From contig QPGO01000070.1 in assembly GCA_008632985.1 (NCBI GenBank), positions 372,001 through 413,962 of the forward strand: a DNA stretch of 41,962 nucleotides. Direction: 5' to 3'. Origin of the DNA: Psammoneis japonica. Lineage: Eukaryota. The position numbers and the translations under genes are program-made. Each line of letters begins with the position of its first letter. The first letter of the stretch is position 1. The notes under the pieces are model-generated. The model was not told where the DNA came from, made no database searches, and was given only the letters and a program-made list of their open reading frames with translations. Below are positions 1,469-41,962 of the stretch, piece after piece.

Positions 1469-2615
<1,147 letters not shown>

Positions 2616-5669: not shown

Positions 5670-5689
5670 GGGGGGGGGGGGGGGGGGGG
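5670..5689 (+). repeat. Poly-G tract (G20); a second G14 tract at 9175-9188
   Basis: Direct observation. Confidence 0.9.

Positions 5690-7357: not shown

Positions 7358-7360
<3 letters not shown>

Positions 7361-7390
<30 letters not shown>
7361..7390 (+). repeat. (GA)15 microsatellite
   Basis: Direct observation. Confidence 0.95.
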
Positions 7391-7394
<4 letters not shown>

Positions 7395-15791: not shown

Positions 15792-16226
15792 ATGAGCAGT
15801 GATCACCTCCATTTTGTGGGAAAAAACCGTCAAACAACTCAATTGATGGATGTGTTTCAATGATCACATCTCAACCACAAACCCTGTCATCCAAACAAAC
15901 CCTCAGCACATGACCCCCCTTTTGTGTGTGAGCAATTTGTTGCGCTCATTCTCCTTGTTGGAAAATGCAATCTGAGCAAAACAACGCAGACTTTGTGCAA
16001 ATTCTGCACAAGCAGGATTTGTGCCAAGTCCACACCAAATGACTGAGCACAAGTTTCTGGAGAAAACAAATGGCAGAACCAAATTCCTTGCAAATGAAAA
16101 GGGGGGCAATGCACTGAGAGTTTGTTTGGATGATGGGATTTGCAGCTGAGACATGATCATTTGAACACATGCATCAACTAAATTGTTTGATGTTTTTTCC
16201 ACAAAATGGAGGTGATCACTGCTCAT
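15792..16226. mobile_element. MITE/foldback element of about 435 bp with long terminal inverted repeats
   Basis: Perfect 28-bp inverted ends atgagcagtgatcacctccattttgtgg / ccacaaaatggaggtgatcactgctcat. The imperfect arms extend about 145 bp (to about 15935 and 16080). No coding capacity. Confidence 0.85.
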
Positions 16227-22499: not shown

Positions 22500-22760
22500 G
22501 TGCAAAAAGAGGTTCATTGGTTTTTGACACATTCGCTGACAACACATCCGTCTTCTCCAATTTCCATGTCCAGATCCAGAAAGACTGCAGGTGGTGCTTG
22601 TTCCTGCAGCTCTCAGAATCACCGCATGAAAAGTTCTTTGCCACATGTGAAACTCTTCAAAAAAGGTGTGCACAAAAAGCTTCATTCATTTTTGATGTGT
22701 TCACTTACGTTGCATCTGTCTTCTCCAATTTCTACATCCAGATCCAGAAAGACCACAGAG
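22500..22760 (+). repeat. Direct repeat, period 168 bp, two copies
   Basis: catccgtcttctccaatttccatgtccagatccagaaagac (about 22545) versus catctgtcttctccaatttctacatccagatccagaaagac (about 22713). Confidence 0.85.
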
Positions 22761-22904
22761 GCAGAGAGTGGGGAGGCAACCCATTGGAGGTTGCCTGAGT
22801 TGTTGGGCTCATTTTAAAAGGCTTCCCAAGTCTCTCCGCTGTTTGTGGTCAAGAGCAGGGGGGGGGTCGACTGCAACAACCGCAGCAGCTGCCAATTCCA
22901 TGTT

Positions 22905-23415
22905 GATGGGTTGGGAGCTGGCAGCAGAAGCTCCCAAATTGGCGGCGGCAGATGCACCTGCAAGTCCACATTGCGGTTTCAATTGGTTGCTGTTGTTGTC
23001 CTGTGCACTCTCACAAAAAGCATTTCACATTTGTTTGCAATGAACAAGGTGGATCAGAGCAATGTTGCTTCGCCTGGTCCAGAATCAGCTTTGCGGGGTT
23101 GGGAACCGGCGGCAGAAGCGACCAAATCTGCCATGGCGGATGCACCAGCAAGTCCACATTGTGGTTTCAATTGGCTGCTGTTGTTGTCCCATGCACTCTC
23201 ACAAAGCATTTTGCACTCCTTTGCAATGAATGAGGTGGATCAGAGCAGTGCCACTTCACCTGGTCCAGAATCAGCTTTGCGGGGTCAGGAACCGGCGGCA
23301 GAAGTGACTGAATTGGCAGCAGCGGATGCACCTGTGAGCCCACATTGTGGCTTCAATTGGTTGCTGTTGTTGTCCCACACACTCTCACAAAGTGTTTTGC
23401 ACTTCTTTGCAATGA
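22905..23415. repeat. Tandem repeat, about 186-bp unit, nearly three copies (probably a 62-aa repeat of a dead ORF)
   Basis: The anchor cacattg lies at 22967, 23155 and 23341. The copies share ttcaattgg..gctgttgttgtcc and ggtggatcagagca...cctggtccagaatcagctttgcgggg. Confidence 0.9.
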
Positions 23416-23809
23416 TTTGCCGTTGTGAACAGAGTGTCACTCCTCGTTCGAAGGCATTGCATTTGGATTGCTTGCCACCATGTCTTGGCGTCAAGATTGT
23501 GCTCTCAACTGCGTGGCAGTGCAAGTGGAGTTCAAAGAGGTCCAAGCTTGTGCTTGTGAAGGCAGTGGTGCATTCCACTTTCGCTGCAGTGAGCTCTGGC
23601 TCCACCATTTTGTGCATCAGATTTGTGCCTTTCTCTTGGAATTCAGTCATTGCCTCTTTGAATTCATTGACAAGCCTTTGTCTCCATCTGCGTCATTCAA
23701 ATTAAGCGCAAACAACAAAATAGAACGTTTGCAATGCAAATGATTTTAAATTGCAGGTTTTGCGGGAATGGAGGGTGGGCACTCTCATGGGGAAAATGGT
23801 TGGCTGCTT

Positions 23810-24008
23810 CGCAGTGAATGGTGTTGCCTCACAGGACAGTTGCGGGCTCCACAGCAACAAAGTTCATCTTTCATGGTTGACAAATTGTCACCATGCACAC
23901 AACTGATGAGGTTTGAAACCACAAAATTTTTAACCACGACAGATTAAAAAATTTGCCACAAGAAAGTCGGTCTGATCACTGCATTGCGCGCTCTGATGCT
24001 GTTTTGTT
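23810..24008 (+). repeat. Dispersed repeat of about 200 bp, copy 1 (probable transposon end)
   Basis: Shares tgtcaccatg..cacaactg..aggtttgaa.ccaca, cagattaaaaaatt, caagaaag and gatcactgca.tg.gcgctctgatg with 30503-30702. Confidence 0.75.
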
Positions 24009-24899
24009 TGGATGGGTGGCATGCATCAGGGGCCACAACATGGCAGTGCTTGCTTTCATTTTTGTGTTTTGTCACTTTGAACTCAATGCATTTTGTTCTT
24101 GTTAATTCTGACATTGCATTCAAAAGTTGTTTTTGTGAGACATTGTTTGTTCTGTGCATTGCATGTGGGTCATCATCACCTTTTGCTCTCAAAATTGTTT
24201 TTGATCAATTTTTTGCACATCACATTCACCTTCAATTGCTCCTTTGTTTTGTGATGACATTGTCTCTTTTGTTTCAATGCATTGGCTTTGAAAGTGCTTT
24301 TTAACAGCACCACCCCACACGTGCACCACCACACTTGCTGGTGTCCTTTCCACACCCAAGTCATCCCCCACACGCACCTGCCTCATTTTTTCTTATTTTC
24401 TTCCAGCTTTTCAGTGCATGGCTCTCCACTGGATTTTCATCACCTGTTCTGCATGTGCAAATTTCTGTGCATTTCACAACAGCACATCCTTTCCCCAAAA
24501 TGCATTTGACCAGAGCATGTGCTGTTGTGGTTCACGCACATTCTGCGTGAGTCAACAACTGACTTCCCACCATGGCAGTCAATGACTTTACCCCATCCCA
24601 CAACAAGGTCGACCCCAACCCTTCCTTCCAATTTCCTGATGAGTGCAATTTTGATGACAGAACATTTTGCCAATGGCTTTGGAGTGGAGTTGTTTGGACC
24701 AAAGCTCAAAAGCACAATTGCAATGCGTGCCTCCAAAAAGCAGTTCTTGGAGACAACGAACTGGTCTCCCTCTCTCCAGAATTCCTTGCACTTCCCTTCC
24801 TCTGCCACAAGCCAAAGTCACATCACATCCCTCATGTTGCCAAAGCCATCCACACCAACAATGTTGTCAGGAAAACTCTCTGACATCCTGACATCTGGT

Positions 24900-27800
24900 C
24901 CTGCATCATGACTTGTGGTTGGTCCATGAAGAAATCCCATGCGCTTAAAGGCAAACATGTTCTTTGCTGTCAAAATTTGGAGGAAGCTCTCTGTTTCTCC
25001 AAAGTGCCTGGAGAGACAAAAAAAGGAAGAGGAACACCATGTGAACCTTCACCACAACATCAAGGTGATGGTGGAATTTGTGCACAAGATCATCGCTGGC
25101 AATGACCATGATGATCCTGTCTCTGGCAAGCCTCACCTCCATTTCTTGGGGTGCAAAATTCTTCAAGATTTGATCAACGACCATGCCCATGACCTTCACA
25201 GTGCATGCCATGTCACCAAGATCATCATGTGTTGCATCCAGTGCAAACCCAAGGACATGGACTGTTGGTTCTTGCAGATGTTCCGCAATGTCAACACCCA
25301 AAAGGAGTGGTGCTTGTTCGTCAAAACAGCTTTCTTGTCACGTGCAACTCCAACAATGTTGGTTCCCAGGAGGACAAAGTCAAGGCTTGTCTTGGAGACA
25401 AACTTGGTGACATTGAGAACTCAGCAACAATGGAGGGTGATTCCCCAGCCCATTGGGAGGCCTGCAAAGAAAAAATCAATTCCATGTTGAATCATGAATT
25501 TGGGCAGCGCTGTCCTGCTGAGGCGCAACCTGGCACACAACCCAGGTGCAGCAAGCAGCTCACAATGCTTTGTTGCAGAATGCATGATCAGAGGGCAGAC
25601 TGCATGGATGACAAGAACAAGCAAGAGCACAAATCAAAAACCAAACATGAAGTCAGGAGGATCCAAAAAGATGGCGCCGGTTTCCACAGCAGCAAGTGCC
25701 TTCCTGCATGTCAACTGCCTTTGTTCATGTGTTGTCTGATTGATCCTTTCCCCTCTTGACTTTATTTGCACAACAAGAGCCTTCTTTGACCACCCCCCTC
25801 AAGAAGGCCAAGACCGTCTCTCACCCAAATGCGGCACCCGCTTTGGTTTCTGGCAATGTGTCATCATCTGGGAGGTGCACTGCACCCTCACTGCCAACAT
25901 TCCCACCCTGTCTGAAACCATGGATTTGGCCAACCCAGCTTCTCCCCCCAAAGGCTGTCCCACCAAAGGGCGCCTCACTCGGCCATGTGTAACTGCAGAT
26001 GGGCTGGCTGCTGGGACTCCTCCAACAGACCCCAACAACATGTTGTGGCTTGACAAATCTGCTCTCTGTCAGTGCTTTGACCCGCCCAAGGGTCAAGCTG
26101 TTGCCTCAGAGAAAGTTGCAGCACACGTCTCACGTCTGCACATCATTGACAAGGGTGTTGACATTGAGCATGCACTGCAGCATTCCACTGCTGACTTTCA
26201 CCTCACAGACAACCTGAGGGAAAACTGGCACATGTTTTCCAACAACACCACCTTCTTGAGCAATCACACCATGGCCTCCTGTGTCCAAGTTGAGTGCAGC
26301 GGGAGGATGTTGCTCTGCAGGGATTGTGCATCTCTTGTGGTCAAGCATGCAATGGACACTTCAACGCCAACAACTGCACCTGGCATTGACACAGGAAAAC
26401 TGCCACCGGTTGTTTCACTGTCATGGATGCATTTGGTGACCTGTGGTCCTTCAAGGCAGCTGCTGACAGCAGAAATCTCATCAATCAGCACTGTGACAAT
26501 GTGTTTGACATGAAGCCAATGCTGACTTGGATGCACCACAATCAAGCACAGCTGGACTTTGCACTGAAAGACTTGGACCCACAACACAATGGCCCCTCCC
26601 ATCCTGATGTCATGCCATCTGCCAAAGCATTCAAGCACCTGTTGTTGGATGACAACAGGCTGTGGGATGATGTGGCAATTGGTGGTGGTGGCAAGACAGG
26701 ACTGCCCAAAGTGCACATGGACCAGTTGAAGTTCCCATCTTTCCCTGTGAGAGACTTCCATTTGTCAACTCCAGTCACAGTGCTCCACCGCTTCAAGAAC
26801 ATTGTGCACAGATCCAGGCCAGACCCAAAACATGTCATTGGACTGGCCATCCTGGCTGGTCATCCCACAGGCTGCCATCAATTCTGCTGTGTTGGGGACA
26901 AGGGCTTGCTGAACCTCTGTTGCAAAGGGGCAGATCCATTTGTGTCATGCTGTGACTTTTTGATGAATGATTTTGGTGTGTTGTTTGGAGACCCACAGGT
27001 TGGACAGATCAGCCCCACCAATTTGACGTGCAGGAAGTTTTCCGAGGTTTTCATGGACCCCAGATGCATGGCCACGGCCAATTGCCTTGTTGACCTCATC
27101 GTGGACAAAATCTGTGCAACTCTTCTTTGGACAAATTGCAACGTGGGGACCAAAGAGTTCTGTCCCAATTTAATGGAACAACAGTGCAAGGCTGCACCTG
27201 TGATGTCTGGGCACAACATGGGGCAGATTTCAGCAAGATCTGTCTCATGTTGTTGCTGCAATGTCTTGTGCTGGGGGCTGTCACAGTGAAGGACCATCCA
27301 TGTCTGAATGACATGGTGCACTCTGTGTTCAATTTGGGAGCTGCAGCACAACTGGAGCACACCAAACCAGAAGAACGGCCGCTCATGCATCAACGCATGT
27401 CATCAGAGACTGGTGCCAAAGAGCATGGTTGGAATGGAATGGAGCACAAGCTTTGTGAGAATTCCAACAATCATTGCACCTGCACATTTGATCACATGTT
27501 CCATGGTCCCTGTTCTGGGCAAGACGTTTTTACCTTCTCTCTGTCAGGTCAGCATCTTTGCAAGGCATGCGGGTTCACAGAGTGTCAAACAGCAGAGCAT
27601 GTGGATGCCAATCCCAACCCATGCACGGCATGCACCAGCATGGATGCCACCACTGACTCATCCTCCACTTCTCTCTGTTCTGGAATTGTTGCAGACAATG
27701 AGTTAAACTCACTCTCAGAGGAGTCCTGCAGTGACAAAGTCAGTGACGAATCAGAGTCTTCCACTCACAAGTCCGCATGAACCAAGGAGGGCAACAACCA

Positions 27801-28257
27801 ATTTGTTGCCACAGACTTGTCCACCTCTCTCTGTTCCGGACTTGTTGCTGACAATGATTTAAACTCATGCTCGGAAGAGTCCTCCATTGTTGAAGACAAG
27901 GACGAATCAGAGCATGAAGGAGTTGTGGATGACAATGAGTTGAGCTCATTGTCCAAGGAGTCCTTGTTGTCAGCAACTGTTCCTTCTGGAGCAGAGGCTG
28001 ACAACGAGTTGAGCTCATTGTCCGAGGAGTCTGCCATTGACAAAGTGGAAGACCCGCCAGAGATGGCGGAGTTTGACAAATCAGAGGAGTGCCAAGCCAT
28101 TGTCACAGCTGACATTGAATCCATTGCATTGCTGGAACAGTTTTACGATGATGACATGCAGTGCATGGCACCAAAGGAACAACAAAGGAAACCACCAGTC
28201 ATTTCATCATTGCCAAATTTTGACCTGGATGAATGTGTGGATGCAACTCTTTTGTGA
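24900..28257 (+). pseudogene. Large decayed plus-strand gene or genes of unknown function, with an acidic repeat tail
   Basis: A chain of overlapping plus-strand ORFs (24939-25490, 25740-26513, 26423-27289, 27127-27780, 27817-28257) with protein-like composition once H/C are read as former Y/R. Confidence 0.55.
27660..28035 (+). repeat. Four diverged copies of a DNELxSLSEES-coding motif
   Basis: gacaatgagttaaactcactctcagaggagtcc-like units at about 27694, 27850, 27931 and 28000. Confidence 0.8.
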
Positions 28258-28381
28258 GTTGAGCATGTTTGGCACTGTCCTGTTTGACTTGCTGCTGCTT
28301 TTGACTCACCTTTTTTGAGTCAAACTGTGGCACACAAACCATCTAACAACACACTTTTGTCACACATTTGTCACACTTACA

Positions 28382-29185
28382 AGCAATGACAGTGGGACCA
28401 AAGTCCCATGGCTGGGCATGACGAGGCCTGCAAATGCAGGAGAGCTCTCTCTAGAAGAGCTTTGTTTGGACCGTGGCATCAAGGCAGTGGTTTCCGAGCA
28501 ACAATGAGGAGATGAGGCAAGGTGCACAGTTGTGAAGGATCTTTTTATGAATGCATCTGTTGAGACACACACTGTCTCTCTGCAGGATGGCAGTGCCTCA
28601 CACCACCTCAATTGCAATGTTTCTGCTGAGAATTTTGCAAACAGCATCATGCTGAGCTTTGGGGGAGAGATTGATTTTAGGAAGAGTGGATTTGTCCAGA
28701 TGTGCATGGACTGTTGCTGGATGCAATGCGGTGAGTGGAAAATGAGCACATTTGGAGAATGATTTTCCCGCAAAAACCTGCAAGAGATGATGGATTCTCT
28801 CCTTCATCCACAGTTGCAGAGGTGCCGCATCATTGTCCTGCACAACCTCTGGTCACTCAGGCAAGTTGTGGGAAACTTGGAGTGCATGGAAAGTTTTGCT
28901 TTCATCTTGGGTGTCAACAAGGGAATGGCGCATCATGAAGTTATGATTTGCCAGGCCTCTTGTGCAATCGGAGAGCTGGTGAGGGGTGAATGGCTTGGGA
29001 AACCATCCAATCAGGAAGACTTGCACTTGGGTGTTACGGAGCAGGAAATCCGGGCATCCGTTCCTGAAACAGAAAGGGAGGAAGTCCTCAGGTTTGTCAA
29101 GGAGCTTCCATTGGTTGATCCAAAGCAGACAACGAAATTGTTTTCCTTTGAGAAAAGAGCACCAGAGTGGGAAGTGAGCAAATGA
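28382..29185 (+). pseudogene. Decayed ORF of about 270 codons with a possible Rossmann/SAM-methyltransferase-like pattern
   Basis: One frame is interrupted only by two TGA codons (28505, 28760), each explicable as CGA>TGA. It reads KV(P/L)WLGM...DEARC...VET(H/Y)TVSLQ...HLNCNVS...FVQMCMD(CC/YY)W. Confidence 0.4.
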
Positions 29186-29751
29186 CCTTCACATTTTTTG
29201 GTCCGATGGCAAACAAGGTGGATTGTGTTGTGGCATGCATCAATTCAAGCAGGCGAGTGACCCGTGGCACTTCTTTTTCTAATGAAGGAGCTTCAGCTCT
29301 AACATCATTGACATTGCTTTCTCCAATTGAGTTTGCATGTGTTTGTTCAAACAAGTGCATCTTCATCCACTGCTGTGAAACTTTTCCGCACATGTTTTTC
29401 TGCATTCTTGAGTCACCCAAACATGCTTCATTTTCTTGTGCGACTCCACAATCCTGGCTGCTCCTCAAAAACCAACAACTTGTTGCCCAACAGCATCAAT
29501 GGGCACCAAGAACAGCTTTGGAGAGCACACGGCTTTCTCTGCACTGGACAATTCATGGTTCTTCACTCAGTCCAATTGCCGCCAACTGATGAGGTCAGTG
29601 TGTTGCATGCGTTCTGCCATTGAACACTTGTCCGTTTGGTGCATGCAAGGGTGAACAATGGCGCGCAACTCACCATTGCTTTCCTTTTTAAAGAAACAGT
29701 GCAGCCAAGAAGGGAAGAACAAATTTCTGCACCAAGTTCCAAAGCTCACAT

Positions 29752-30219
29752 TTGCCCAGTTGCACACAGCTCCTGTTGAAAAACTGCTGGAAGATTTGGG
29801 AGCACAAGGCCATTGAGGGCAGATTTGTTGGAGAGGGAATGGGCAAGGCAGGTGAAAAGGAGAAGAAGACAGAACCAAGACCCAAGTGCACAGACCCATT
29901 GCAACAGCATGACTCATGGAAGAATGAAGGGACACAGCAATTCAACGACCTGCTTGAGGAGGTGAAGGAAGACAGGGCAAGTGAGGCAGGTGTGCAGCTC
30001 AACACATGGTGCAGCAATGGCAAGAAGAGGGAGAGTGATGAAAAGGAAAAGGGAGCAAATGCCAAGACAATGCCGGCGGCGCAGGAGGCAAGAAAACAAG
30101 TGACGACAGAGCTGTCCAGTGATGGCAAGGACAACAAAGAAAAGAGGAAGAGCATGATGAGGACAGTCAAGAGGAGGAAAAAAGTGAAATGGACAACAAG
30201 AATGATGAGAACAAACTGA
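29752..30219 (+). pseudogene. Decayed ORF with LLxN(Y)WxxW...PK(Y)TD...WxxEGxxxFNxLxxxVxxDR motif and a charged tail (probable DNA-transposon accessory gene)
   Basis: LLLKNCWKIWEHK...PRPKCTD...DSWKNEGTQQFNDLLEEVKEDR. The family association is from memory, not a search. Confidence 0.4.
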
Positions 30220-30502
30220 GGTGTGGAAAAGGGAGCAGAGCCTTTTGACAATGCGGAGCAGGTGACAGCAAAGTGGTGCATTGATGTTCATTGAAAAACT
30301 TCACAAACTGGGAATGCAGCAATTCAGTGTTCATTGATGAACGTGTTTCATGCCATGTGTTGTTGAACAATTGTGCTGTGGACAGCACAGACAACATTCA
30401 ATGAGTGTTTTGACAATGAATGGAACACAATCAAAATGCTTTTGAACATCACACTCCACAGGCAAAACAGCAATCACTGTGTGGGAGAAAGGGGGCTTTT
30501 CC

Positions 30503-30702
30503 ACAGTTAACGGTGGCATCTCATGGCACAGGTGGGGGGTCTGTGGCAAAAAAAAATTGTCTGTCACAGACAAAAAAATGTCACCATGTGCACAACTGTC
30601 AAGGTTTGAAGCCACAGCACTTTTAACTGCAACAGATTAAAAAATTCACTGCAAGAAAGGTGGTCTCCTGGATCACTGCAATGTGCGCTCTGATGTGTTT
30701 TC
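30503..30702 (+). repeat. Dispersed repeat of about 200 bp, copy 2
   Basis: Same orientation as 23810-24008. Both copies begin with CAGT(T/G)AA. Confidence 0.75.
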
Positions 30703-33700
30703 TGCCACCAATGTGGCTGCTGTGGGGCTGTGTGTGGACACTCCAAGATGTTTGCGATTGGCCCAACTGAGCTGTTTTTCAAGCAGCATTTTGCAAGAGC
30801 CCAAGAGCCCATTTGCTGGAGACTGTTCACCTCAAAATGACATTAGAAACATCGCGTGAGTGGCCCATGGTCATGCACAGTGGCCCTTTTTGGCTGCAGC
30901 AAAAGAGGGCAACAATGCTTGGGAAACAAGAAATTTGCTGTGTTGATTTTGTGCACCATGCTTCTGCTGGTGTCTGACTGTGTGGCACTGTGAAAAATGC
31001 AAGAGCTTGGATTTGTTCAAACAGCTTTGATGTGGACACTGCATTGTTGAAGCACTGCCACAACTCTTTCTTTCATTTTTGCCAGCAAGGCACTGCCAAG
31101 CTTCTTGTTGCTGCTCTCCCTCTTTGCACAGAAGCACATGCTTACACTCACACTGCCAAGGACCCTGACATCTCCAGAGGACTCTTGAAGAAAGTCCTTG
31201 CAAATCTCAAGATCATCTGCCAGGGAAGGGGAGTGATGATGATGTTGCTTGTGAGCACATCCATTTGATCCATGACAAAAGATCGATGTGATTTGGCATG
31301 AACTGCAAACCTGCTGGACAGTGCGGCAGGCTCAACTTGAAAATGACCCAGAAAACAAAGAAACAAGAGACAAGTTGCTCGACAAGGTGAAGAAGCTTGG
31401 ACAACCTGTCTCATGTCCAAAAAAGTGTTTTTGACTGCTGCTCTTTCAAATTGTGAGCTGGGAGGAGTTGTCAACTTCACAAACTCAAATGATTTCCTTC
31501 TCTGCGCAGATCCATGCAATGCCTTTGATGACACCATGATGCATGTTTTGTGTTGCTTTTGGAAGCAAGGTGAGGTGTCCTTGCTCACACCCAGAGCAAC
31601 CTGGCAGTGACATGCACCTGGCACTGGCATTGTGCCATCACAAAAAGTGGGGCCACCTTCTCATGTGTGTTTGTGTTTTGTTTGCCATGATGGTGGAACA
31701 CAACCCAACAGGAGCACAGGATGGATGGCACTGAACTTGACACATTGACACCATTCTCCCCCACAGCAACAACAGCAGTGGATCACATTTGCATCTGACA
31801 AATTGCAACAACCAGCTTCATGGGCCAATCATCAGAAACTTTTTTTTTGTTTGGGTCTCATTTTTTGTCATTTCAAAAAGTTTTGATGCTTGAAAAAGGC
31901 TTGCTGCTGCTGCTGCTGCTGACTGCTCATTCTCTGCCTGTGCTGGTTGAACTCTGGAATGATTGTGGTGCACAGAAAACATTGCACATCTGTCTGATGC
32001 CTGGCATCACATCCTGATGGCAAGCACCTTGGTGCATCCACCTGCTGTCACCAAAGCACCAGTCCTTCTGGTGCCAAAAAATCTTGATGAATTGCATGAC
32101 ATTGGTTTTCATTGCAACCACAAGAACTCCAAGGAACCTCACTGTGTGGAAAAGTCTTGAGGCAATTCGTCTGGGCAGATTGCAAGCCATTGGTGAAAAA
32201 CTTGGAGGAGGCCATGCTCAATGCCAGCAATGTTGATGTGTGTGCTGACTGCATCATCTGCTGCCCTGAGGCAACGGAGCAGTTTCCAGGATTGTGTGCT
32301 CTTTTTGCTCCAAGAAGTGCCCACTTGAGAACAAAAATTGTGCCAAATGCCAAAAAGTTGGGGTTGCAGGCTGTTTTGCATGAAAAACAAAATGGCACAG
32401 CAGGCAGCAGAGGACCATGCAGGGTGCCAGACCCCATGAAGAAATGAAGTTGGGCTGCCATGGAAAACACACAGTTCCCTGTGTGATGGTTGGGTCTTTT
32501 TCAACAGATTTCAACATTCTCAGCAGCCACTCCCTGTCCATTGATGCTCCCAGAGGCAAAATGGGGCAAGAAGAAGGCCGCCAGTGGCCAGGCCAGGAGC
32601 TGGGTCCTAGATTGCCTTTTCTCCTGACAACATGAGTCAGTCAACATCCACAACACCTGCTCCCATGACTGTGCAGTGTCTCTGCTGCAGGCTGCTAAGG
32701 AGTGATGGCTCTGGCTGTGTTCCACATGGGCACATGCAACCAAAATGCAACCAGCAGCAACCAGTTGCACACAGAACATGAGAACCAGAGCACCCGCATG
32801 TGAACAGAGCATCAGACTTTTTTGCACACCCTCCTGTTTGAAATTCACACACAACGGTGCTTCCTCCGGCAAGCAACAATTGTGCAGGACAAATTGCCGT
32901 GTCATTTTTTGCAGCATTGATCTGCACAAAATCGCACAGTCACACACCACACAAGACAAATTCTGCCTTGCATCAACCTCCAAAATGATGCAAACAATGG
33001 CAGCCCTGGCCCCAAACGTTGGCATGGAGCAAGCCAACCATTCATGTGTGACAATCGTTGGTTGCTGAGACCAAGAAAACCAGGGGACAGATTTTGCAAT
33101 GCTGTTTTTGGCGGATTGTGGCATGGTTTTGCAGGAGGTTGTTTTGGCTGTCATTTGTTGAGTGTCAGACTTGCACAGGTTTCTGTGTGATGGCTTCTGA
33201 TGAGTGATTTTGGATGATGCAATTTGAATGGATTTTCAACAACACACAACAACAGGGGGATGTTGGGGCTGTCAGAAGGTTGTGAGGCGATGTTTCAAGG
33301 GTGTTGGAGCCAAGAAATGGGCAATTTTGGAAGTGCCTGTCTCATTTGTGCCATTTTATTCAAGCACAATGATCAACAGGGCTTTTTTCATGTCTTGTTG
33401 GGTTGTGAGCTCATAGATTTGAATGTTTGCCATCACAAATTAGCGCCAAAAAAATGACGCCGTAATTCATCATGTGCAATTGTTGCTCACAGGAGGAAGA
33501 GTGATGCACAGGCCATTGTCCAAGTGATTTTGCAGCATCACATTTGTGTTCTCAAGCAAAATTTGTGCAAACTGTGTGAATTTTAACATGACATGTTCCA
33601 TCGTGGGAAAACAGAGTTTGATGCCACATCACCCATCATGATGGGTCTGTGGCTTTGGCGGCACCAATGCCAGCACTTTCCACCGTGTCAAGTGGCATCT

Positions 33701-34259
33701 TGCTGTTGCCTTTGTAATTGTCCATGATGCACAAAGCAGAATTGAGTGATGCACCTGTTTTTCATGTTGAAAATGATGGATGCATCTCCTTTGTTGGTGT
33801 GATGTGACATGTCAACTTAGTGCTTTTTATCAAGATGGTAAAAGTTGTGCTGTTCTCAAAACAGGTTGCCTGTTCAGAACAACGTGTTGCACTGTTCGGA
33901 TGTGGAGTTGCCTGCTCTCAGCCAAGAGTTTGCTCAAATGGGGTTAGAACAGGTGTGACATTTGACCAAAAATGTCAAAAACAAAGGAACACATGAAATG
34001 TCATTGGAGTCACTCAGTGCACAAATGTGACACTAAAAATTGCTTGGCCACATCCCCTGTGTTGCCAAACAATGATCGGAGGGACAATGGCCGGGAAGTC
34101 CTCTCGTCAGGTGGGGCCCTCCTTGTCAAAATCCCTCCTCATTGGGGGCCATCTTCTTGTTGAAACACCTCCTCATTGGGGGTCTTTTTGTTGAGCTGTT
34201 GCCCCTCTGATCACACTTTTAGCAGGAACCTCAGCATGCAGTTGCTGTTGCAAGCGTTG

Positions 34260-35464
34260 TTCTCCATGCCGCTCTGGCTTGTCTCAGGTTTTTGGAGTTT
34301 CATGTTGCAACAGTGCTGCCAAACAGTCTCAAGTGTCGCGACCTCTCAGAACCAGCTGCCAATTTGTGTGACACGGACATCATTCTCACAACAGCTGCAT
34401 TTTGTGGAGGATGGCTGTGCAGCATGCTGGAACTTCATCGTGCTGTGGTTGACGAGTCTCACCTCCTTGACACTGGCAATTCCATGGACTGCAATCATTC
34501 CTGCAATGTGCTTGCCAACATTTGCTGGCGTGTTGCCACTGCTCCTTTTGCATCCACTCATTCACTTTGGAAACAGATGAGCTTTATCAAGATCCAAGAA
34601 GACTTCCTCATGGTGGCGGAAAGGGCGTCTCCCAAGGAGCGCTTCTGTCATTTGGCCGCCAGGCCGAAGCCCTTGATGATTCGATGCACAAAAAACCAGC
34701 GCATCCAAGGCAAAGCCGCCCTGGCCCTTCCTGCCTCGACTGCTCAATCTGCAATGGTTGAAATGACGGAGAAGGAGAAGCGTAATTTCAAGATCTCATG
34801 GTCCCAGGGATGGAGGCGCTTGCAATCTTTCGTTGCGGGAGCAAAGTTGTTTGCCATTGAGACGTCAGGGGTGTCTTGCGCCAGTCCAGCCATTTTTTTC
34901 CAGAGGAAGCCGATTTGCGGCACTGTTCCAAGATTCAACGTCTTGTCGCCGATGTTCAAAACTTGACAGTTCGCGAAGAAAAAGAGTCCAGGATTCTCCT
35001 GCGAGTCGCAGTTTTTACCCACTGCAAGGGCATGTTAAAGGCTGACGCACACTTCTTGAAGCCATTCATGAATGTTTACACCTTGACGGATCCACCACTT
35101 CTCCCAAGCGAGACAAAGCTGTTCGGGCATTTCAGGATGTTTCTCACACCGAATGTGTGAGCCTTCGTCCTGCTGCCTTTGTGATTACCCTTCGTACCGG
35201 CTCAGTCGGCATCACGCTGACGGCTGCATCACACGTTTATACTGTATGATGGAACCATGCGTCGATGTCAATATGGAGACGCAAGCTGCTTGGCGGATCC
35301 ATCGACTTGGCTAAACCAAGCGCGTGGGGGTGACGAGATATGTTCACAAGGAGTCGGTGGAGGAGCGATTGGTAGAACTGCAGTCAGAAATGGTGGCTGG
35401 CCGCATCCGGTTGGGTCAAGATGGAAAGCTTCCTGTTGAAGGAATCCGTATTTTGACTAGCTAG
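34260..35464 (+). pseudogene. 5'-truncated SNF2-family (RAD5/16-like) helicase pseudogene
   Basis: DIILTT, HRAVVDESH (motif II), WRVATAPF (motif III-like), LMIRCTKNQ, VAVFTH, VITLRTGSVGITLTAASHVY (motif V), and MEP...ETQAAWRIHRLG*TKRV (motif VI) with a premature TAA at 35312, then SVEERL. Frameshifts are present; the final TAG is at 35462-35464. Confidence 0.85.
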
Positions 35465-35719
35465 AGGATATCAGGAGACGCATCAATGGTATTTTTGTCA
35501 TAAATAGATATGTATGCATAGTTGTATTCATGGTGATGTACGCGCAGTGCTGTTTCAATGAAGAAACAGCTCTATCGTCTGCGTGAAAGTGCCGTATTGT
35601 CGTGGAATCAATTCAGGACGTGGCCAAATGATAATTTTTCTATGCTCGGCGTTTAGTATTTCTCGTGGTTGACATCTATGAAATTCAAACGTTGTTGTAA
35701 GATGGACGTCCTGGAACGT

Positions 35720-36617
35720 CTATTCCAAATAGGATCGCCGAGATGCCGGCATCAAGAAATCGTCCGTGCATTTCTCCATCTCAATCTCAATCTTGTTGTT
35801 ATAATTCATTTCAATGAGCAAAACACTCGTCTCGGCCGTTCCACACATATGCTCCGTTTTCCAGCTTGACTGTACAGTTCGATTCCATAGAATCACGCGA
35901 GCATTGACCAATAGGCCAAAGAGGATGGGAGCGAAGGCATGTACGGCTGGGAAAACTTCCAGATGCATGTTGAAATGGAATTTCTTGAATAATTTCCAAG
36001 CTGATTTCCCCTTGACCCGTTTGTTGAATTTTGGAGCATTCACCCGCCAAGTCTCATAATCTTCAACCTCTTCTCCATCTGGGGCTTCCTGTTCTCCAGA
36101 TGGATGGAAATCGTACATTGTCACTGCCTCGCCAGCACTTAGTTTTTTCATGGCGGTTCCCTCCTTGTACTCAATTCGGCGAGTCTCCCGACCGAGTTGG
36201 TTAGCCATATCTAGGGAGGCTTGGACGACGGCGGCCTTGGTGTTGTGCTTGTTAGACCATCCCTTGCGAACTTGCATAGAAATCTCGAACGATGGGTTGC
36301 AAAGTCGCAGACGACAAATTACTACCGGTAGTAGACCGAGAGAAGAGTTCTTTCTCGGTTGCGATCTTGTGGAGGAAGCGGTTCATCAGGCGGATCGAGA
36401 GGAGTTCGTCAAAGTCCAAGAAAGGGAGGATATTAGCGACGAGCAACGACGTGAGGATGTCTCCCAATCCACGGAGGCCCGTCTCGTTTTCCTTGTCGGC
36501 GCCTTCGCCACGGTTCATTTCGGAAGTACTACGCATGGTTGCTTCAGCATACGTAGGCTCGTCGGCCGTTGCTTCTTCTGTCTTTGCTTTCTTCGGAGCT
36601 GGTTCCTGCATTGACAT
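35720..36617 (-). CDS. Putative F-box-containing protein (one apparent frameshift near 36280-36330)
   Basis: LTSLLVANILPFLDFDELLSIRLMNRFLHKIAT is F-box-like. The ORF 36617-36252 overlaps the ORF 36277-35720 in another frame. Normal CpG/TpA content. Confidence 0.55.
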
Positions 36618-36739
36618 GATGGCTTGTGTATTAGAGAAGCAACAACGTGATTTGCCTTGCAGTTCAGAATCGCGCGGCAGGAGAAAAACTTGATGCCGAC
36701 AAGGGGGCGACGTACGGACCGATAGCAGACAGACTGACC

Positions 36740-39700
36740 ACCGACAGACCTGCGGATCGTCTGGCCGACGCTACGCGACCATGCGTCACGTGACTCATCA
36801 GGAGCGTGCACCACACAGGGCATCAACGAGAGCACAAATTCAAAATTGTTCCGTCCATCAGTCCATCCTCTGTCAGGGGGAGAACTTCTTTTTGTCTTTC
36901 CCCTGAGTTGTGTGTGTGCACCCAATGGGCAACCAGCATTGCAGCGGCGGGGGAGTTGTCATGAACTCGTCATCACAGCAAGTTGTGGCGGGCAGCTGAT
37001 GCTTCGGCAGGAGGAGAGCTGCTGTTTTGTGGAGTGCGCAACTTGAAAAGGAAGTGCGTGCAGCACAGACATTTTTTGCCTGCCTCATCTTGGGCCAAAG
37101 AAACAGAATTTGACGTGTTCCAGAGCTCCAGGTGGGGCCTCGCACTGCTGAGCTGTGACACAATTGTTTTTCATCATCCGTCCCATGTTTTGCATGCACA
37201 TTTCTGTGTGTTCTGTTGCAAAAAATTGTTCCACACTGCCTGTTTTGTGAAGCCAAAGGCTTTCTGTTGTCTGCATTTGTGACAATGAAAATGCGCTGGG
37301 CATGTTCTTCAATGACTGAAGAGTGCACCTGGGCACACTGCAAAGAATGCACTTCAAGTGTGGAGGAGGAGATGCATTTGCCAAATTGCCTCTTTTTCTG
37401 TTGGTGATCATTGACATGTTCATTGCTTGACAATTTTGCTGCAGAGCTCGCACGTGGAATTCTGCGGGCCCAATGTCACAAAAAGTCCCGCCTGGGGCTG
37501 GATCCCGTCATTTGAAGCTCACTTGATGACGGTCTCCTGCACGCTGTTCCGCGTCACTGGCTGTCCTTGAGAACCTCTGATGCGCCACTGTTTTCCCTTC
37601 ACTCTGTGCACACACTTGAACATGTGATCTCTGCAGCAAGGAGAGCCAACCAGCACTCAATTGGCTGTTGCCCAGTGCAACACACAATGCAGACAGTCAT
37701 TGGCACACCAGTCTGTTTTGTGCACACTTGTTGCCTCAACTTAGATCCCACACAATCTGGCCACAATTGAATCAGGATGTTGAGAAACACTGATTCTGAA
37801 GCTCAAGGAGTTCAACCAGCTCAAGGCAGGTGAGATGCCAGTGCACCTGGTGCCATGAAACAGCCCCAGGTGTGGATGCTGTTGGCTTCACTGCCCCAAT
37901 GGCAGCAGCCAGGTCCAGAGAGCCACCCTTTTGCCAACCTTTGCATCATCAAGCAGCCTCATCAAGGGGGAAGAGCAAGACCAGTGGTGTCAACCACACC
38001 AGCCCAGCTGGCCATCATGCTGCAAGTCTCGTCTTTTCCACTGTGCTGACTCGCTCATTGTGGAGGTGTCGGGCTCATGCTCACTTGTTCTGGCTCATTT
38101 TTGGTGGAGGTCATTGCTGAGCACAGCAGTGGACGACCAGTGGTTTGTGATTTGTTTTGCTCTCAGATCCTCTCACAATGTTGGGGAATCATCTGATGCC
38201 ACACACAGTCCCTCAAAAGACTTGCTGACCTTCAACTGTCCTTGCCCATGGGACACAGACCTGCAGACTTGCTGTCTGACCCTGGCATCAAGCACACACA
38301 GGCCAGTTGGTTGACCCTTTGGTCCCCCTGGTTCCCTTTTGGAGCCTCAGGTCAAGTGGCATTCATTTCTGCACCCCCCCCCNNNNNNNNNNNNCCCCAG
38401 AGCATCTGCATCTCCTTCCTGTGTGATGCCCAACTCTTGCAGGATTTCTGATGGAGGTCTTCCGCCCACCAACATCAACCACAAAAATGTCAACAAGCTC
38501 ATTTTGAACATCCCTTCAAACACTTCTAACCACACAACAAAATGAAAAAGTGCCCCATTTCAAGATCCTTTTTGAACATCCTTCATGACTTGAAGGAATC
38601 CACATTTTGACCACCAGCCAACAAGATCAGGAGACACGTCAGTGCACTCTTGATTTTGAAAGAATCACACCAATGTAGAATGCAGTGTGTCAACAAGCAC
38701 AATCAGGCTGGAAAGTGAAGGGAGATTTTGCTGCACCTTCTTTTGTTCTGTCACAGTCCTCTTGTCTTTGGATCATTCATCTCCAAATTTACAGCATCAA
38801 ACCAAAGAAGCAGTCATCAGGTTGGTGTCAGAAGTGCAGTCGCCTGCCCACCATTGTGGGCAAGCCATCAGTGTTTGAGCTCAATGCCTGGTCATTCTCA
38901 TGTTTTTGGTTGGCAAGAAATTGCACCAGATGCCAGTCGCAACAACACAACGGCCTCCAGCAAAGCATGCACATGGCAGGGACAGTTTCCATCACACCAT
39001 CAATTCTTGCTTCAACAGAGAGCTGCACCTTTTACAAGGACAAGGGAAGTGAGAATGAAATGAGTGGCAGGCTTCAGGACCAAGACACCCTCCTGCAGCA
39101 AACCGCAGCAGTTGTTCTGCCTTGTTTTCAAATCCCCGCATTTGTGTTGAGGGTGTCTTCCTGGCACACAGCTTTGGGAAGAAGCACTCCAGCATTTTCA
39201 ACTTGAAAAAGGAAAAGCACAGAGAGCCACAATCTTGCCCACCTTCAAAACCAAAAAGACATTGGCGGCTGAGAGTTCTTGGACAATGGAGCTTTCGAGA
39301 GAGCCCTTGTTGTGCATTTCCAACTCCAAGTGGAGATCATCGTGAAGTCCCTGCTTCTTGGCATCCATGAGAGGTTTGAGAGCCACGGCACAGTTCCTGC
39401 TGCACTTGACATTGCCCATCCCTCCTCTGGTGGCTCAAGACCTGATGGTTTTGAGGTGGAGATTTGGGCCGCTTGTTGCCGCAGAAAAGCAGTTTCCCGC
39501 GGGGCTCACACAAAGAAGAGCATCAAAAACTGAGGACTGGGGTGCAGCCCAAGCTGTTGTCCACTTCCCAAGAGCACGGGTCAAATGCAAAGTTTCATGC
39601 CTTTGCCAAATAGAGAGATCAGGTCAGAGTTGGCTTGCACCATGGTTTGAATGCCCTTCACAAAGAGCTCAAACGAGGGTGCTGGCAAACACAGTGCTTC
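36740..39700. other. CpG- and TpA-depleted decayed domain C
   Basis: Same composition as domains A and B; CpG is partly retained at the edges. Confidence 0.8.
38383..38394. other. Assembly gap (12 N) inside a poly-C run
   Basis: Direct observation. Confidence 0.99.
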
Positions 39701-39717
39701 TGCTCCACGGACGAAGC

Positions 39718-39993
39718 TGACAGAAAATGAAGGCAAATGGCAAGAATTCAAACAACAACTCCTTGCTGCTGTCTAAATGGCAGATGAGTCTCCGCTCAGA
39801 GACCGTCACAGGAGCCGAAAGACGTGCAAGTCGGTGTGATCGGGCCACTGTCATTATTCTTGTGAGCCTTGTGGCTCGAAAGCAAACTACATCGCGCGTG
39901 AATGCACGGAACTAAAGCACACAAAACTGTGCACGGCAAACTAAACAGCGCGCGATGCTTCGCGCGCACCTGAATCCTGTTCAAATCCTGTCA
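39718..39993 (-). repeat. Probable 3' LTR of the copia element
   Basis: On the minus strand the purine tract AACTGGGGAG is followed by TGACAGG at 39993. A matching inverted end ...CTGTCA lies at 39718. The 5' LTR is outside the window, so the end is unconfirmed. Confidence 0.55.
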
Positions 39994-41962
39994 CTCCCCA
40001 GTTTGCTTGAGGAGCCACAGAAACAGATTTGACTTCGGATGGAATGAAGTTCCAGAACATGAGGGGGCGGAGAAGGTCCCAGATTTGGGAGTAACCCCAA
40101 TGCTTGCTGAGAATGTCAGCAGGGTTGCGGGAACCTTCGATGAAGTGGAACTCAAGGCAACCAGAGGCAATTGCCTCACGCACACGGTGGAACGACAGTG
40201 CGGTGTGTCGCTTGTGTAACTTGGAGTGCGGGATGGTGGCACTGTCTACAACCGACTTGTTGTCACCGAACATGTAACTAACGTTACGGATCGGGACGCC
40301 AAGGCAGCGCAGGGTGATGCGCAGGTCGATAATCTGCTCAACACAAGTCCTTGCGGCAACAAATTCAGACCCGCAGGTTGCAGTCTCCACGGTGGCTTGT
40401 TTCTTAGAGAACCAATCAGCCGGGAATTTGTTGAGGAAGTGGAGCATTCCCATGACAGAGCGTCCGGTGAGCATGCAATGGTGCAAGTTTGCATCGACGT
40501 AGTGGGTGGTAGTGACGAACTTTCCAAGGGGCGGTGGAGCGTCCTTCGGGATCATCTCTTCTGCTCCACCATGCACGGAATGCATCCATTCACAGGCCGG
40601 AGCAGGGAGATCCGAACAGTCGGGCTCTTCCGTGCAAACGCGGAGAGCACCGTGTCGCATCTTGGAGAGGTGCCCACAGACGCGTTTGGCACGATCCAAG
40701 TGGCCTTGACGGGGTGCAGCTCGGAAGCTAGAGAGTGACATGACGGCCGTGGTGATGTCAATTCGACCAAGGGACACTGCCCATTGGAGTGAACCAACAA
40801 GAGACTGGAACTTGTGAATGCCATCGGGTCCCAGCAGTTCGGAAGTGTCCAGTTCGGGGTGGTCACCCTTCTCTAGAGGTGACAGGGCGTTGGTGGCAGG
40901 TTTCTCCCCAAACAGTCGGGCATGGCTGTCGACCATGCGCTTGATGTACTTGCGCGGAGACAGGCACAAGGTTCCGTCGGGTTCCCGGGAAAAGTCGCAA
41001 CCCAGATGGAACTCAATGGGTCCCGCACCCTTGAGCTTGAACTTGTGCTTTTCCGTGAGAGTGTCGACGAAAGATTGAGGGTCCTTCATGGCAATGGCGA
41101 GGTCATCCACATAAACGGCAATGCATTCATGGTGGTCGCCGTTCCTGCGCATCCAAATGTCGGGTTCGGCGCGGCAGGGGAAGAAGCCTTCAGCTCGCAG
41201 GCAGTCGGCGAAGCGCTCGTGCCAGCGGAGACCGGAGCTGCGCAGTCCATGCAGTGCCTTGTGGATGACAAGGATGTGCCCTTCGAGTTTGCCGAACTCG
41301 GGTCCAGCTACAATGTAAAGCTTCTCCTTGGTGGTGGCTTCAAGGTGGGCATTGCCAATGTCGGTGGCCCATGTCTCCAACTCGTTGAGTTCGGCCAGGA
41401 AAATCATCAGCCGAAGGCCACAGAGGGAGACTGCTCCGGAGCAGACACTGTCGACAGGTACGTCCGTGAGGTGCCCGTCGGCTACGAGTCGTGCCTTGTG
41501 GCGACCGTCGTGTTTCACGTCGCACACTAGGTGCACTCGGATCTTCTTGTGTCCCGCAGGAGGAGTGGAAGATTTGAAGGGCCCGCAGTCATGGAAGACT
41601 TTGTATTCGTCGAGTTGGTCCATCTCGAGATTAGTTGCGTCTCCCCACTTGCGGTTGCCATTGCGTTCGTCCAGTGACATGGCGTGTTTGTAGTTCTGGG
41701 GAACTTCGCATCCATGCTTGTAGCGAGGTGCAGTGCGGAAGGAGCGAAGCTTGGCTTGGTTGGCCATGCGAAATGGCTTCTTTTGGCGCCTCGCGATGGT
41801 GCGGAACCGCTTCCAGCCATCCGTGTCGAGGAGTCCGTTCTCTCGTGCATAGATGGCACAGGTGACGGGGTCATCCTTGGCGATGATGGCAAGAGGCTCG
41901 GACGTGATCTCCCCACTTTCCCATTCAAGCATGATGTTGTAGCTGGAGCCTTTCCAGGTTGG
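39718..41962 (-). mobile_element. Ty1/copia LTR retrotransposon (diatom CoDi-like), 3' part of pol: RT and RNase H
   Basis: Uninterrupted 663-aa ORF with DVKHDGRHKARLVADG, DIGNA(H)LEA, KAL(H)GLRSSG, YVDDL, YVDAN, SKKQATVETAT(C)GSEF, GDNKSV, KLHKRH, NPADILSKHWG. It continues past the window end. Confidence 0.95.

Follow-up and report, generated by a model that had tools for sequence, protein, structure and literature searches.

Loss of TpA dinucleotides from a copia-type retrotransposon copy and the DNA around it in Psammoneis japonica

The element and the compositional domains around it

The stretch of Psammoneis japonica DNA analysed here (41,962 nucleotides, called the window below) ends in the 3´ part of a Ty1/copia-type pol ORF, comprising the reverse transcriptase and the C-terminal region (39941..41962, minus strand). 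The frame is open over 673 codons and runs past the window end, beyond which the 5´ end of the element also lies. Its product matches Pfam RVT_2, the copia-type reverse transcriptase, at residues 135-346 (E 5.8e-26, 92 bits, cut-off 31.6) and has an intact YVDD box, in agreement with a preliminary description of the sequence, in which the frame had been named copia pol. The same description compared it with CoDi (diatom copia) motifs, and the element may belong to that group. Among 7861 candidates scored, 2091 homologues of the ORF protein were found at E<=0.001, and PF07727 is present in all 120 homologues listed. Upstream of the part matching the window, where an integrase would be expected, six of nine relatives have ~480-520 further residues and a seventh has 395, the remaining two being composite; in three of these relatives Pfam recognises RVT_2 only. 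No other copia copies were detected in the window beyond this ORF by tblastn with nine relatives.

The 3´ LTR (39718..39993, minus strand; 276 bp, TGACAG...CTGTCA) is delimited by its sequence and by a repeat boundary in read contigs at 39717/39718. It has TG...CA ends and is directly preceded by a polypurine tract, ctggggag (39994..40001, minus strand), which lies inside the ORF; the junction of ggggag with TGACAG is also found in many relatives' loci. The high-copy signal in read contigs begins at the LTR; below 39717, contigs that represent other copies diverge. The pol stop codon (39943-39941) is located 50 nt within the LTR. An in-frame CAA codon at 40009-40007 had been taken for a former TAA; none of the read-contig differences listed falls on it, and the frames of relatives end ahead of the polypurine tract, at the first TGA of the LTR or within the LTR, with C-terminal tails of varying length. 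From residue 639 on, the conserved G-D-T of the relatives is no longer matched by the query, and an indel is possible there. The ORF covers the reverse transcriptase to the C-terminus in a single member of a copia-type LTR retrotransposon family that is very high-copy.

Some three quarters of the 42-kb window (~31 kb; 30,970 bp) have a TpA o/e of 0.05 and a CpG o/e of 0.17, with CpA/TpG at ~1.8. This depleted zone abuts three islands of normal composition with sharp edges, one of them containing recognisable host genes, and CpG o/e in the islands is ~1.0, silent codon phases included. The first island (1..4000; TpA 0.46-0.68, CpG 0.75-1.02) carries two Pfam-recognised host features on the plus strand, a PfkB kinase exon (1658-2086) and a DUF819 gene (3-1145); at the silent phases 2-3 and 3-1 of this gene, CpG o/e is 0.78-1.02. 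Beyond an edge at ~4000 that falls within one 250-bp bin lies a block nearly without TpA and CpG (4001..10250), followed by the second island (10251..12500) with a 412-aa ORF containing a 48-bp tandem repeat. The largest block nearly devoid of TpA and CpG (12501..34500) shows CpA/TpG excess and no recognisable protein domain, and includes several intermediate kb-scale stretches (e.g. 22001-24000, TpA 0.07-0.13, CpG ~0.5). The third island (34751..36900; TpA 0.43-0.59, CpG ~1.0) is single-copy in read contigs at 36000-36900. Next to it, the heavily depleted flank of the element (37001..39717) contains 0-2 TpA per 250 bp, is mostly single-copy in read contigs and includes an assembly gap of 12 N (38383-38394).

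The index (TA+CG)/(TA+CG+CA+TG) falls from ~0.4 to <=0.05 within 250-500 bp at 4000, 10250, 12500 and ~36900, and over ~750 bp at ~34500; across all 250-bp bins of 1-4000 it is 0.24-0.46. Self-comparison of the window revealed a few short internal repeats only. Between the copies of a 186-bp repeat in the depleted zone, 10 CA/TG double-change pairs occur among 50 mismatches. The depletion is thus not specific to the copia copy, ~31 kb of the window being already stripped, and is not tied to retrotransposition, as the element flank and internal duplications carry the same signature. The neighbouring host gene has 34 homologues, the sole two named ones being diatom proteins (35% and 30% identity). 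Among 78 window ORFs of at least 130 aa, DUF819 and PfkB were the only recognisable domains above the Pfam cut-off.

Tyrosine loss and its dinucleotide context

The pol ORF encodes 11 Tyr, 35 His and 20 Cys. The preliminary description had pointed to the few tyrosines left, and 10 indeed remain in the Met-started version of 663 aa, the eleventh being found over the full 673 codons. For protein comparison, 39 relatives were taken from the 120 listed and aligned with the query. The alignment holds for all 39 at 55-69% identity (at least 60% in 36) and, as described earlier, requires no frameshifts. About twenty conserved tyrosines had been proposed to have become His or Cys, and we count 19 of them if Tyr is required in at least a third of the 39 relatives. 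Nine of the replaced tyrosines (174, 206, 238, 278, 280, 347, 431, 464 and 553) are near-invariant, being Tyr in 37-39 of the 39 relatives, and none of the 39 shares the query residue at any of them; the His and Cys residues are therefore not a feature of the relatives, a possibility that the preliminary description had raised against itself. Tyr, or TA in the DNA, is kept at these positions by the 39 protein relatives and the 48 relatives compared as DNA. Among majority-Tyr columns, the query has lost 11 of 23 (7 to His, 4 to Cys), while losses to His number 0-2 in each of the 39 relatives and losses to Cys are absent from them. Conserved columns other than Tyr have changed at an ordinary rate (30 of 411). 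The further replacements V177A (GTA>GCA), I506M (ATA>ATG), R181C, R443C, R89Q and T504M are present as first described.

Nucleotide comparison was based on a codon alignment of the query and 48 of 80 fetched loci, namely those giving one uninterrupted frame. Ancestral states were taken from relatives at most 75% identical in protein, which limited scoring to 21 strongly conserved TpA. Eight of these have turned into CA and six into TG, and one has changed otherwise; the relatives show 0-4 such TpA changes. Outside TpA, T>C is found at none of 40 sites (Fisher p 7e-5), and A>G affects 3 of 103 (p 7e-4). With 14 of 21 conserved TpA converted to CA or TG, the tyrosine losses go through the TA dinucleotide, and the changes are enriched there over other T and A contexts, both as had been predicted. 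When all sites are compared, the query retains TA at 11% of the TpA of a relative (control median 36%) and has CA or TG at 45% (control median 20%, maximum 27.5%). TpA o/e in the ORF amounts to 0.35, 0.26 and 0.23 in the three codon phases, and depletion so similar in all of them suggests a neutral process.

Both strands are affected, in line with the earlier expectation: the 8 changes to CA and 6 to TG form no strand runs. At majority-TA sites, 15 CA face 9 TG in 12 runs, with 12.3 expected.

CpG behaves differently. It had been noted that most CpGs survive in the ORF, and CpG o/e there is 0.86 as against 0.27 for TpA. TpA has also been lost faster, as claimed: 15 of 21 conserved TpA have changed (14 to CA/TG), compared with 6 of 28 majority CpG (5 to CA/TG), the CpG loss estimate resting on these 28 sites. 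In every intermediate 1-kb bin of the window TpA o/e is likewise lower than CpG o/e. Of the 100 TpA surviving in the depleted zone, 84 have TTA or TAA flanking, a share that is 31-42% in the islands and 33% in relatives, and 46% at CA/TG sites. Of the T-flanked ancestral TpA of the element, 4 of 5 are preserved, versus 7 of 34 others. By these counts, TTA/TAA-flanked TpA is relatively resistant. Among the 80 relatives' loci, no 1-kb window has a TpA o/e <0.3, and the correlation between TpA and CpG across the loci is weak (rho 0.31).

Other copies and alternative explanations

What can be said of other copies derives entirely from contigs of a single DNA sample, probably that of the window assembly. 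The family is very high-copy in these read contigs, judged by summed contig depth (not equivalent to copy number). His in this copy faces Cys in others at Tyr-consensus codons 83, 278, 306 and 347, while codon 280 shows Cys here and His elsewhere; at codon 174 other copies are still Tyr; and at codons 81, 91 and 563 this copy has kept a Tyr that is Cys in others. Since His and Cys are swapped between copies at the same Tyr codons, the hits are independent between copies. In one read run, transitions account for 152 of 173 differing places between copies; 40 of the 173 are listed, and among 38 differences listed inside the repeat, 34 oppose TA or CG to CA or TG. At codon 278, the same Cys codon makes up 98% of the other depth; here, already mutated copies could have been amplified, rather than each being hit independently. 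The most depleted part of the window (37473-39743) is single-copy, and read contigs match it with 0-2 differences. This flank is single-copy today at 80% likeness, whereas the element is very high-copy.

Taken together, we explain these observations by a TpA-directed transition process that acts at the DNA level, is confined to particular domains and has been destroying the copia copy after its insertion (probability about 0.78). The alternative that deserves most attention, although we regard it as unlikely, is an untargeted genome-wide bias, combining TpA>CpA/TpG with CpG decay, in which the islands reflect purifying selection on genes and the element is a recent arrival. The most depleted DNA beside the element being single-copy, no present-day repetition is needed for it; the first island carries real genes; islands could partly be kept by selection; and the element and the near-equilibrium zone yield roughly concordant loss rates. 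Nevertheless, a 35-fold pressure on TpA should show at silent sites, and the DUF819 gene keeps its CpG at silent phases. Moreover, depletion is absent from every 250-bp bin that lies between ORFs or next to them at 1-4000, and the edges of the islands are sharp.

A sequencing or assembly artefact, such as miscalled modified bases, is very improbable. Modified bases can give systematic miscalls on some platforms, and all listed runs derive from one sample. Contigs built from short words of the raw reads, however, agree with the depleted flanks, showing 0, 0 and 2 differences along 1154, 910 and 1349 bases, the depth of flank-matching contigs is even (~57-62), and the protein alignment to the 39 relatives is retained free of frameshifts. 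Still less credit can be given to RNA-level editing (ADAR-like A>I, or hyperediting of a sense/antisense duplex) fixed by reverse transcription. The element is a retrotransposon and ADAR favours A>G beside a 5´ U, but both strands are hit equally and without runs, though only sense RNA is copied into DNA; flanks outside the element and internal tandem repeats bear the same signature; and a TpA o/e of 0.05 is beyond the yield of one editing round. To our knowledge, ADARs are known from animals only, and the two named homologues (of 34) of the neighbouring host gene are diatom proteins. We find it just as hard to believe that the His and Cys residues define a functional, selected lineage of polymerase variants. 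Such a reading could draw on the 673 open codons, the intact YVDD and an RVT_2 score of 92 bits, as against 96-115 in relatives. Open frames are nevertheless expected anyway, as neither TAA nor TAG can arise; silent and replacement phases have lost TpA equally, no relative shares the near-invariant replacements, and other copies have different replacements at the same codons.

Proposed process and related systems

Under the preferred reading, that of a domain-confined process directed to TpA in DNA, TpA turns into CpA or TpG site by site, through A:T>G:C transitions that can hit the palindromic TA step in either strand. CpG in the same domains decays to TpG/CpA, as expected for methylated DNA, ~3-7 times slower. 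Transposons, their remnants and other silent DNA are the targets, gene islands being spared; the process is nearly complete in ~31 kb of the window, with the copia copy still mid-way. The data show its direction, its strand symmetry, its specificity for the dinucleotide, its restriction to domains, its speed relative to CpG decay and the independence of hits between copies. We infer an enzyme-driven step behind it, for which we see three candidates, in no order of preference. Adenine or N6-methyladenine may be deaminated at TpA to hypoxanthine, read as G. Thymine may be oxidised at TpA (5hmU/5fU) and mispair with G. Alternatively, T:G-mismatch repair linked to methylated DNA may over-correct T:G replication errors at TpA to C:G. 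On reasoning, neither UV TA photoproducts nor GC-biased gene conversion explains domain restriction and TpA specificity together.

The closest likeness is to RIP of ascomycete fungi, which shares context-specific DNA transitions on both strands, independent action on each copy, missense-riddled transposons and compositionally aberrant blocks beside normal genes. RIP consists of C:G>T:A changes, mainly at CpA, and creates TpA. Here A:T>G:C changes at TpA create CpA/TpG: 14 of the 21 conserved TpA have gone that way, and in the finished zone TpA is nearly absent instead of raised. A change in this direction is not producible by cytosine deamination. RIP is also repeat-dependent with a sexual-phase trigger; here the element is very high-copy, and the most depleted flank, single-copy today, may formerly have been repeated. 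Methylation-driven CpG decay, known from vertebrates and from CpG-methylated transposons of diatoms, resembles the present case in converting CpG to TpG/CpA in silent domains with sharp edges, and CpG is indeed reduced in the 30,970 bp relative to the islands (0.17 vs ~1.0). Such decay, however, leaves TpA untouched; here TpA is lost faster and reaches a lower floor (o/e 0.05 vs 0.17). ADAR and APOBEC likewise produce editing-type transitions and missense inactivation of retroelement copies, but their changes are strand-biased, clustered and limited to sequence passed through RNA or cDNA, unlike the symmetric, unclustered changes seen here (8 CA vs 6 TG; 12 runs vs 12.3), which extend to flanks and tandem repeats.

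Two systems provide possible precedents for the chemistry. Vsr of E. coli performs T:G-mismatch repair linked to cytosine methylation and turns CTAGG into CCAGG (PMC2715241), that is, TpA>CpA/TpG through over-correction rather than base damage. Vsr differs in being bacterial, bound to the Dcm site context and responsible for mild word depletion, as against near-erasure in kb-scale domains. Thymine modification at TpA could also cause T>C, and hmU has a preference for TpA. In dinoflagellates a TET/JBP enzyme modifies thymine to 5-hydroxymethyluracil, preferentially in repeats and transposons, and TpA erosion is not reported in the accessible part of that work (PMC11572971). The contigs of the run examined here total ~141 Mb, far less than the 1-250 Gbp given for most dinoflagellates (PMC11453091).

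A literature search for TpA loss or A:T>G:C hypermutation, with subscription journals and supplements outside its scope, returned fungal RIP and unrelated work only, and the available part of the diatom copia paper (PMC2806351) contains no mention of TpA, dinucleotides, deamination or point mutation. Provisionally, we regard the TpA-directed process as undescribed. Going further, we tentatively suggest, at somewhat less than even odds, that it represents an undescribed, enzyme-driven TpA hypermutation linked to genome defence or heterochromatin, a mirror of RIP running alongside CpG methylation decay and disabling transposons by Tyr/Ile/Leu/Val missense.

As far as we know, context-specific hypermutation of transposons takes two forms, both cytosine-based: decay of methylated CpG, and deamination of cytosine as in RIP and APOBEC. 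Erasure of TpA by A:T>G:C, faster than CpG decay and in silent domains only, needs a different chemistry. If it is enzyme-driven, it would constitute a dinucleotide-specific mutator of natural origin, making A>G (or T>C) changes in DNA and bearing on genome defence, on epigenetic base modifications in algae and on a possible source for base editing. If the hypermutation reading is true, an adenine-deaminating or thymine-modifying enzyme, or a glycosylase/endonuclease over-correcting T:G in a methylation-coupled manner, would be expected at silent chromatin, and in time it would leave kb-scale DNA nearly without both palindromic YpR steps.

Standard repeat and gene finders will fail on such genomes, since transposons that have decayed no longer show recognisable domains, and insertion dating that assumes uniform substitution would be distorted in genomes of this kind. 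Since the process cannot create TAA or TAG, lack of stops is a sign neither of youth nor of function. Such genomes yield many long spurious ORFs: the window contains 82 of at least 130 aa, as against 6.8 in shuffles.

The copia element and TpA loss in its pol gene

The pol gene, on the minus strand at 39941-41962, was read as a single open frame of 673 codons reaching beyond the window end. Its residues 135-346 match RVT_2, the copia-type reverse transcriptase (E 5.8e-26, 92 bits). Of 7861 candidates scored, 2091 are homologues at E<=0.001, the best being 65-70% identical and coming from short metagenome contigs; within the copia superfamily the element is an ordinary one. By the junction ggggag/TGACAG, conserved in DNA of relatives, the polypurine tract lies at 39994-40001 (-) and the 3' LTR begins at 39993. 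This LTR (39718-39993, -) is 276 bp long, has 6-bp inverted ends and terminates with CTGTCA at 39718. The ORF of our copy continues past the tract into this LTR, which may reflect the TAA>CAA change suggested in the preliminary description (40009-40007). Stops of relatives are found ahead of the polypurine tract, at the TGA of the LTR or within the LTR; our copy departs from their G-D-T from residue 639, possibly due to an indel. Below 39718 the DNA is single-copy: read contigs there have a depth of about 57-62 and differ from the window at 0-2 places. Contigs of other copies part from the window sequence just below 39717. From the LTR onward, coverage jumps to 7297 contig pieces (summed depth 6e4-3.6e5), so the family is very high-copy, as judged by summed contig depth rather than a formal copy number, over four runs of one sample. 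There is an assembly gap of 12 N at 38383-38394, and comparison of a single-copy read contig with the window gave G>C at 38909 and C>T at 39500.

According to the preliminary description, about 20 conserved tyrosines of this protein were turned into histidine or cysteine. Alignment to 39 relatives out of the 120 listed bears this out: 19 His or Cys positions of our copy correspond to Tyr in at least one third of the 39. At nine of these positions Tyr is present in 37-39 of the 39 and the residue of our copy in none. In majority-Tyr columns, our copy lost 11 of 23 tyrosines (7 to His, 4 to Cys); in the relatives such losses number 0-2 apiece, all of them to His. Change in other conserved columns is ordinary (30 of 411, versus 4.6-27% in relatives).

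The codon alignment used 48 of 80 related loci fetched, each having a single frame that ran unbroken for 560 residues or more; a nucleotide was regarded as conserved when the same in at least 80% of relatives. Tabulation by dinucleotide context, proposed earlier as a check, revealed clear enrichment at TpA. Among 21 conserved TpA sites, eight became CpA, six TpG and one changed otherwise. Outside TpA, T preceding C, G or T changed to C at 0/40 conserved sites (Fisher p 7e-5 against TpA), and A following A, C or G changed to G at 3/103 (p 7e-4). Under the same test each relative shows 0-4 TpA changes, the top value (2+2) belonging to the closest one, L001. When all aligned sites are considered, 11% of relatives' TpA remain TA in our copy (control median 36%) and 45% read CA or TG (against a control median of 20% and a maximum of 27.5%), and a relative's CpG is kept more often than in controls (44% versus 25.5%). 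In the ORF the TpA observed/expected ratio (o/e) is 0.27 and the CpG o/e 0.86; the 48 relatives have TpA values of 0.49-0.95. The CpG-type changes named before (R181C, R443C, R89Q, T504M) are real, 27-39 of the 39 relatives having the other residue; at the first three sites Arg is still present in about 99-100% of other genomic copies.

Neutrality, strand symmetry and independence between copies

TpA loss is equal across the three codon phases of our copy (o/e 0.35, 0.26 and 0.23; close relatives mostly 0.6-1.0), so changes that replace residues have not been weeded out. At majority-TA sites along the ORF, 15 became CA and nine TG, forming 12 runs (12.3 in shuffles). Such random order rules out a processive, single-strand event and, together with the 8 CpA and 6 TpG at conserved sites, agrees with the earlier expectation that both strands would be hit.

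Other copies in the read contigs allow us to follow individual sites. In X1, one of the runs, transitions account for 152 of 173 differing places, 40 of which were listed individually. Among the 38 best-supported differences between our copy and others, 34 are TA or CG against CA or TG: TA is kept by our copy in six and by the others in five, six are adjacent double differences (TG against CA), and TG or CA here faces CG elsewhere in nine, the reverse in two. Five of the six double differences fall in Tyr-consensus codons. Codons 83, 278, 306 and 347 encode His in our copy and Cys in others, codon 280 Cys here and His elsewhere. Opposite replacements at the same codons mean that one ancestral TpA was resolved both ways in different copies. 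Tyr is still present at codon 174 in a minority of other copies and is kept by ours at codons 81, 91 and 563, where others have Cys. At codon 278 a single Cys codon is shared by 98% of the other depth, so some copies may have amplified after mutation.

Composition of the window and its reading frames

Whole-window o/e values are 0.16 for TpA, 0.38 for CpG and 1.66 for CpA/TpG, with a bimodal distribution. Islands of normal composition (TpA 0.4-0.8, CpG about 0.7-1.2) lie at 1-4000, 10251-12500 and 34751-36900; the first carries a DUF819 gene and a PfkB kinase exon. The neighbouring host gene gave 34 homologue matches, the only named ones being two diatom proteins (35% and 30% identity). The depleted zone (30,970 bp) contains 100 TpA (o/e 0.049), 303 CpG (0.167) and 7038 CpA+TpG, and its few internal duplications differ mostly by CA/TG doubles and by CG against CA/TG. 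The flank adjoining the LTR, single-copy today, is among the most depleted stretches. The signature extends beyond the element, and the element has therefore inserted into already processed DNA and is itself part-way through.

Over the whole window, both strands hold 82 stop-to-stop ORFs of at least 130 aa, compared with 6.8 (maximum 11) in 30 mononucleotide shuffles. This excess follows from the loss of TAA and TAG, which can no longer form and are erased where they existed: stops on both strands of the depleted zone number 116 TAA, 42 TAG and 1486 TGA. Of 78 ORFs scanned across the window, none in depleted DNA gave a recognisable domain. An open frame here carries no information on function or youth, and gene finders would over-call in such DNA.

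Several repeats were observed along the window. A 186-bp tandem repeat at 22920-23415 (2.7 copies, 84% match) lies in an intermediate block (TpA 0.07-0.13, CpG about 0.5); its 50 mismatches include 10 CA/TG doubles and 7 CG-against-CA/TG, showing the same process on a non-copia duplication. A 435-bp stretch at 15792-16226, 70% identical to its own reverse complement, is a palindrome or inverted duplication in decay, with 19 mismatching pairs being CA/TG doubles. A second very high-copy repeat (36995-37591; summed contig depth 2.3e4-8.1e4 versus about 60 in flanks), already strongly TpA-depleted, displays many internal joints and strand switches in read contigs; the overlapping 200-aa ORF (36873-37475, -) has no Pfam match. 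A 48-bp tandem repeat at 11105-11589 (10.1 copies, 94% match) is contained in a 412-aa ORF (10618-11856, -), likewise without Pfam match, which may encode a repetitive host protein since it sits in a GC-rich normal island (TpA 0.82, CpG 1.19). The stretch 12001-14000 is TpA-free, C-rich and proline/leucine-like with strong C-over-G skew (GC skew -0.40), and includes a 309-aa chance ORF (12505-13434).

Origin of the TpA loss

These data show a DNA-level, domain-restricted, strand-symmetric and site-independent conversion of TpA to CpA/TpG, which runs alongside ordinary-looking CpG decay and outpaces it. An untargeted bias acting everywhere, with selection preserving genes, is disfavoured: in island 1-4000, silent codon phases too have a CpG o/e of about 0.8-1.0, no depleted 250-bp bins were found between ORFs, and at most edges of the depleted zone the index (TA+CG)/(TA+CG+CA+TG) needs just 250-500 bp to fall from about 0.4 to at most 0.05. 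Strand symmetry contradicts editing of the element's RNA, as does the presence of the signature in DNA outside the element. A functional His/Cys polymerase lineage is contradicted by TpA loss independent of codon phase and by different replacements in other copies. A sequencing or assembly artefact is unlikely, as raw-read contigs, although probably from the sample behind the window itself, match depleted flanks with 0-2 differences.

That TpA decays faster than CpG, as suggested before, was confirmed: in the element 15/21 conserved TpA changed versus 6/28 majority CpG, and TpA is below CpG in every intermediate stretch of the window. We infer that TpA is lost about 5x faster per dinucleotide (3-7x by conservation threshold). 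Assuming that the depleted zone is near equilibrium and that the four YpR steps interconvert by transitions only, its counts imply per-site rates about 35x (TpA) and 12x (CpG) the background transition rate; this ratio of about 3 fits the element-based estimate. Surviving TpA in the zone are TTA- or TAA-flanked in 84 of 100 cases (TTAA alone 32). The corresponding shares are 31-42% for islands, 33% for coding DNA of relatives and 46% for the zone's CA/TG sites. In the element T-flanked ancestral TpA survive in 4/5 cases versus 7/34 of others. That the preference reaches past the dinucleotide suggests an enzyme more than plain chemistry.

Three candidate enzymatic steps would fit, among which sequence alone does not choose. 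Adenine or 6mA at TpA might be deaminated to hypoxanthine. Alternatively, thymine at TpA might be oxidised to 5hmU/5fU, mispairing with G; in dinoflagellates, a TET/JBP enzyme marks transposons with 5hmU, according to PMC11572971. Finally, T:G-mismatch repair coupled to methylated DNA could fix T:G replication errors at TpA as C:G; E. coli Vsr promotes CTAGG>CCAGG by this route (PMC2715241). We put the probability that the process reflects a new enzymatic system at about 0.4.

In its outcome, the mutation process resembles CpG decay or RIP (repeat-induced point mutation of ascomycete fungi). It lacks the defining feature of RIP, since direction and dinucleotide are reversed. We class the process as context-specific hypermutation of silent DNA. 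No description of it appeared in the open-access papers searched, without their supplements, nor did the diatom copia paper yield one when searched by term. The TpA-loss signature is absent from all 80 loci of relatives. Overall TpA o/e in L001 (75% protein identity) is normal (0.86). With 4 of its 20 conserved TpA turned into CA/TG (2+2), the top value among the 48 relatives, it may offer an early sign of this process at work in another, related host.
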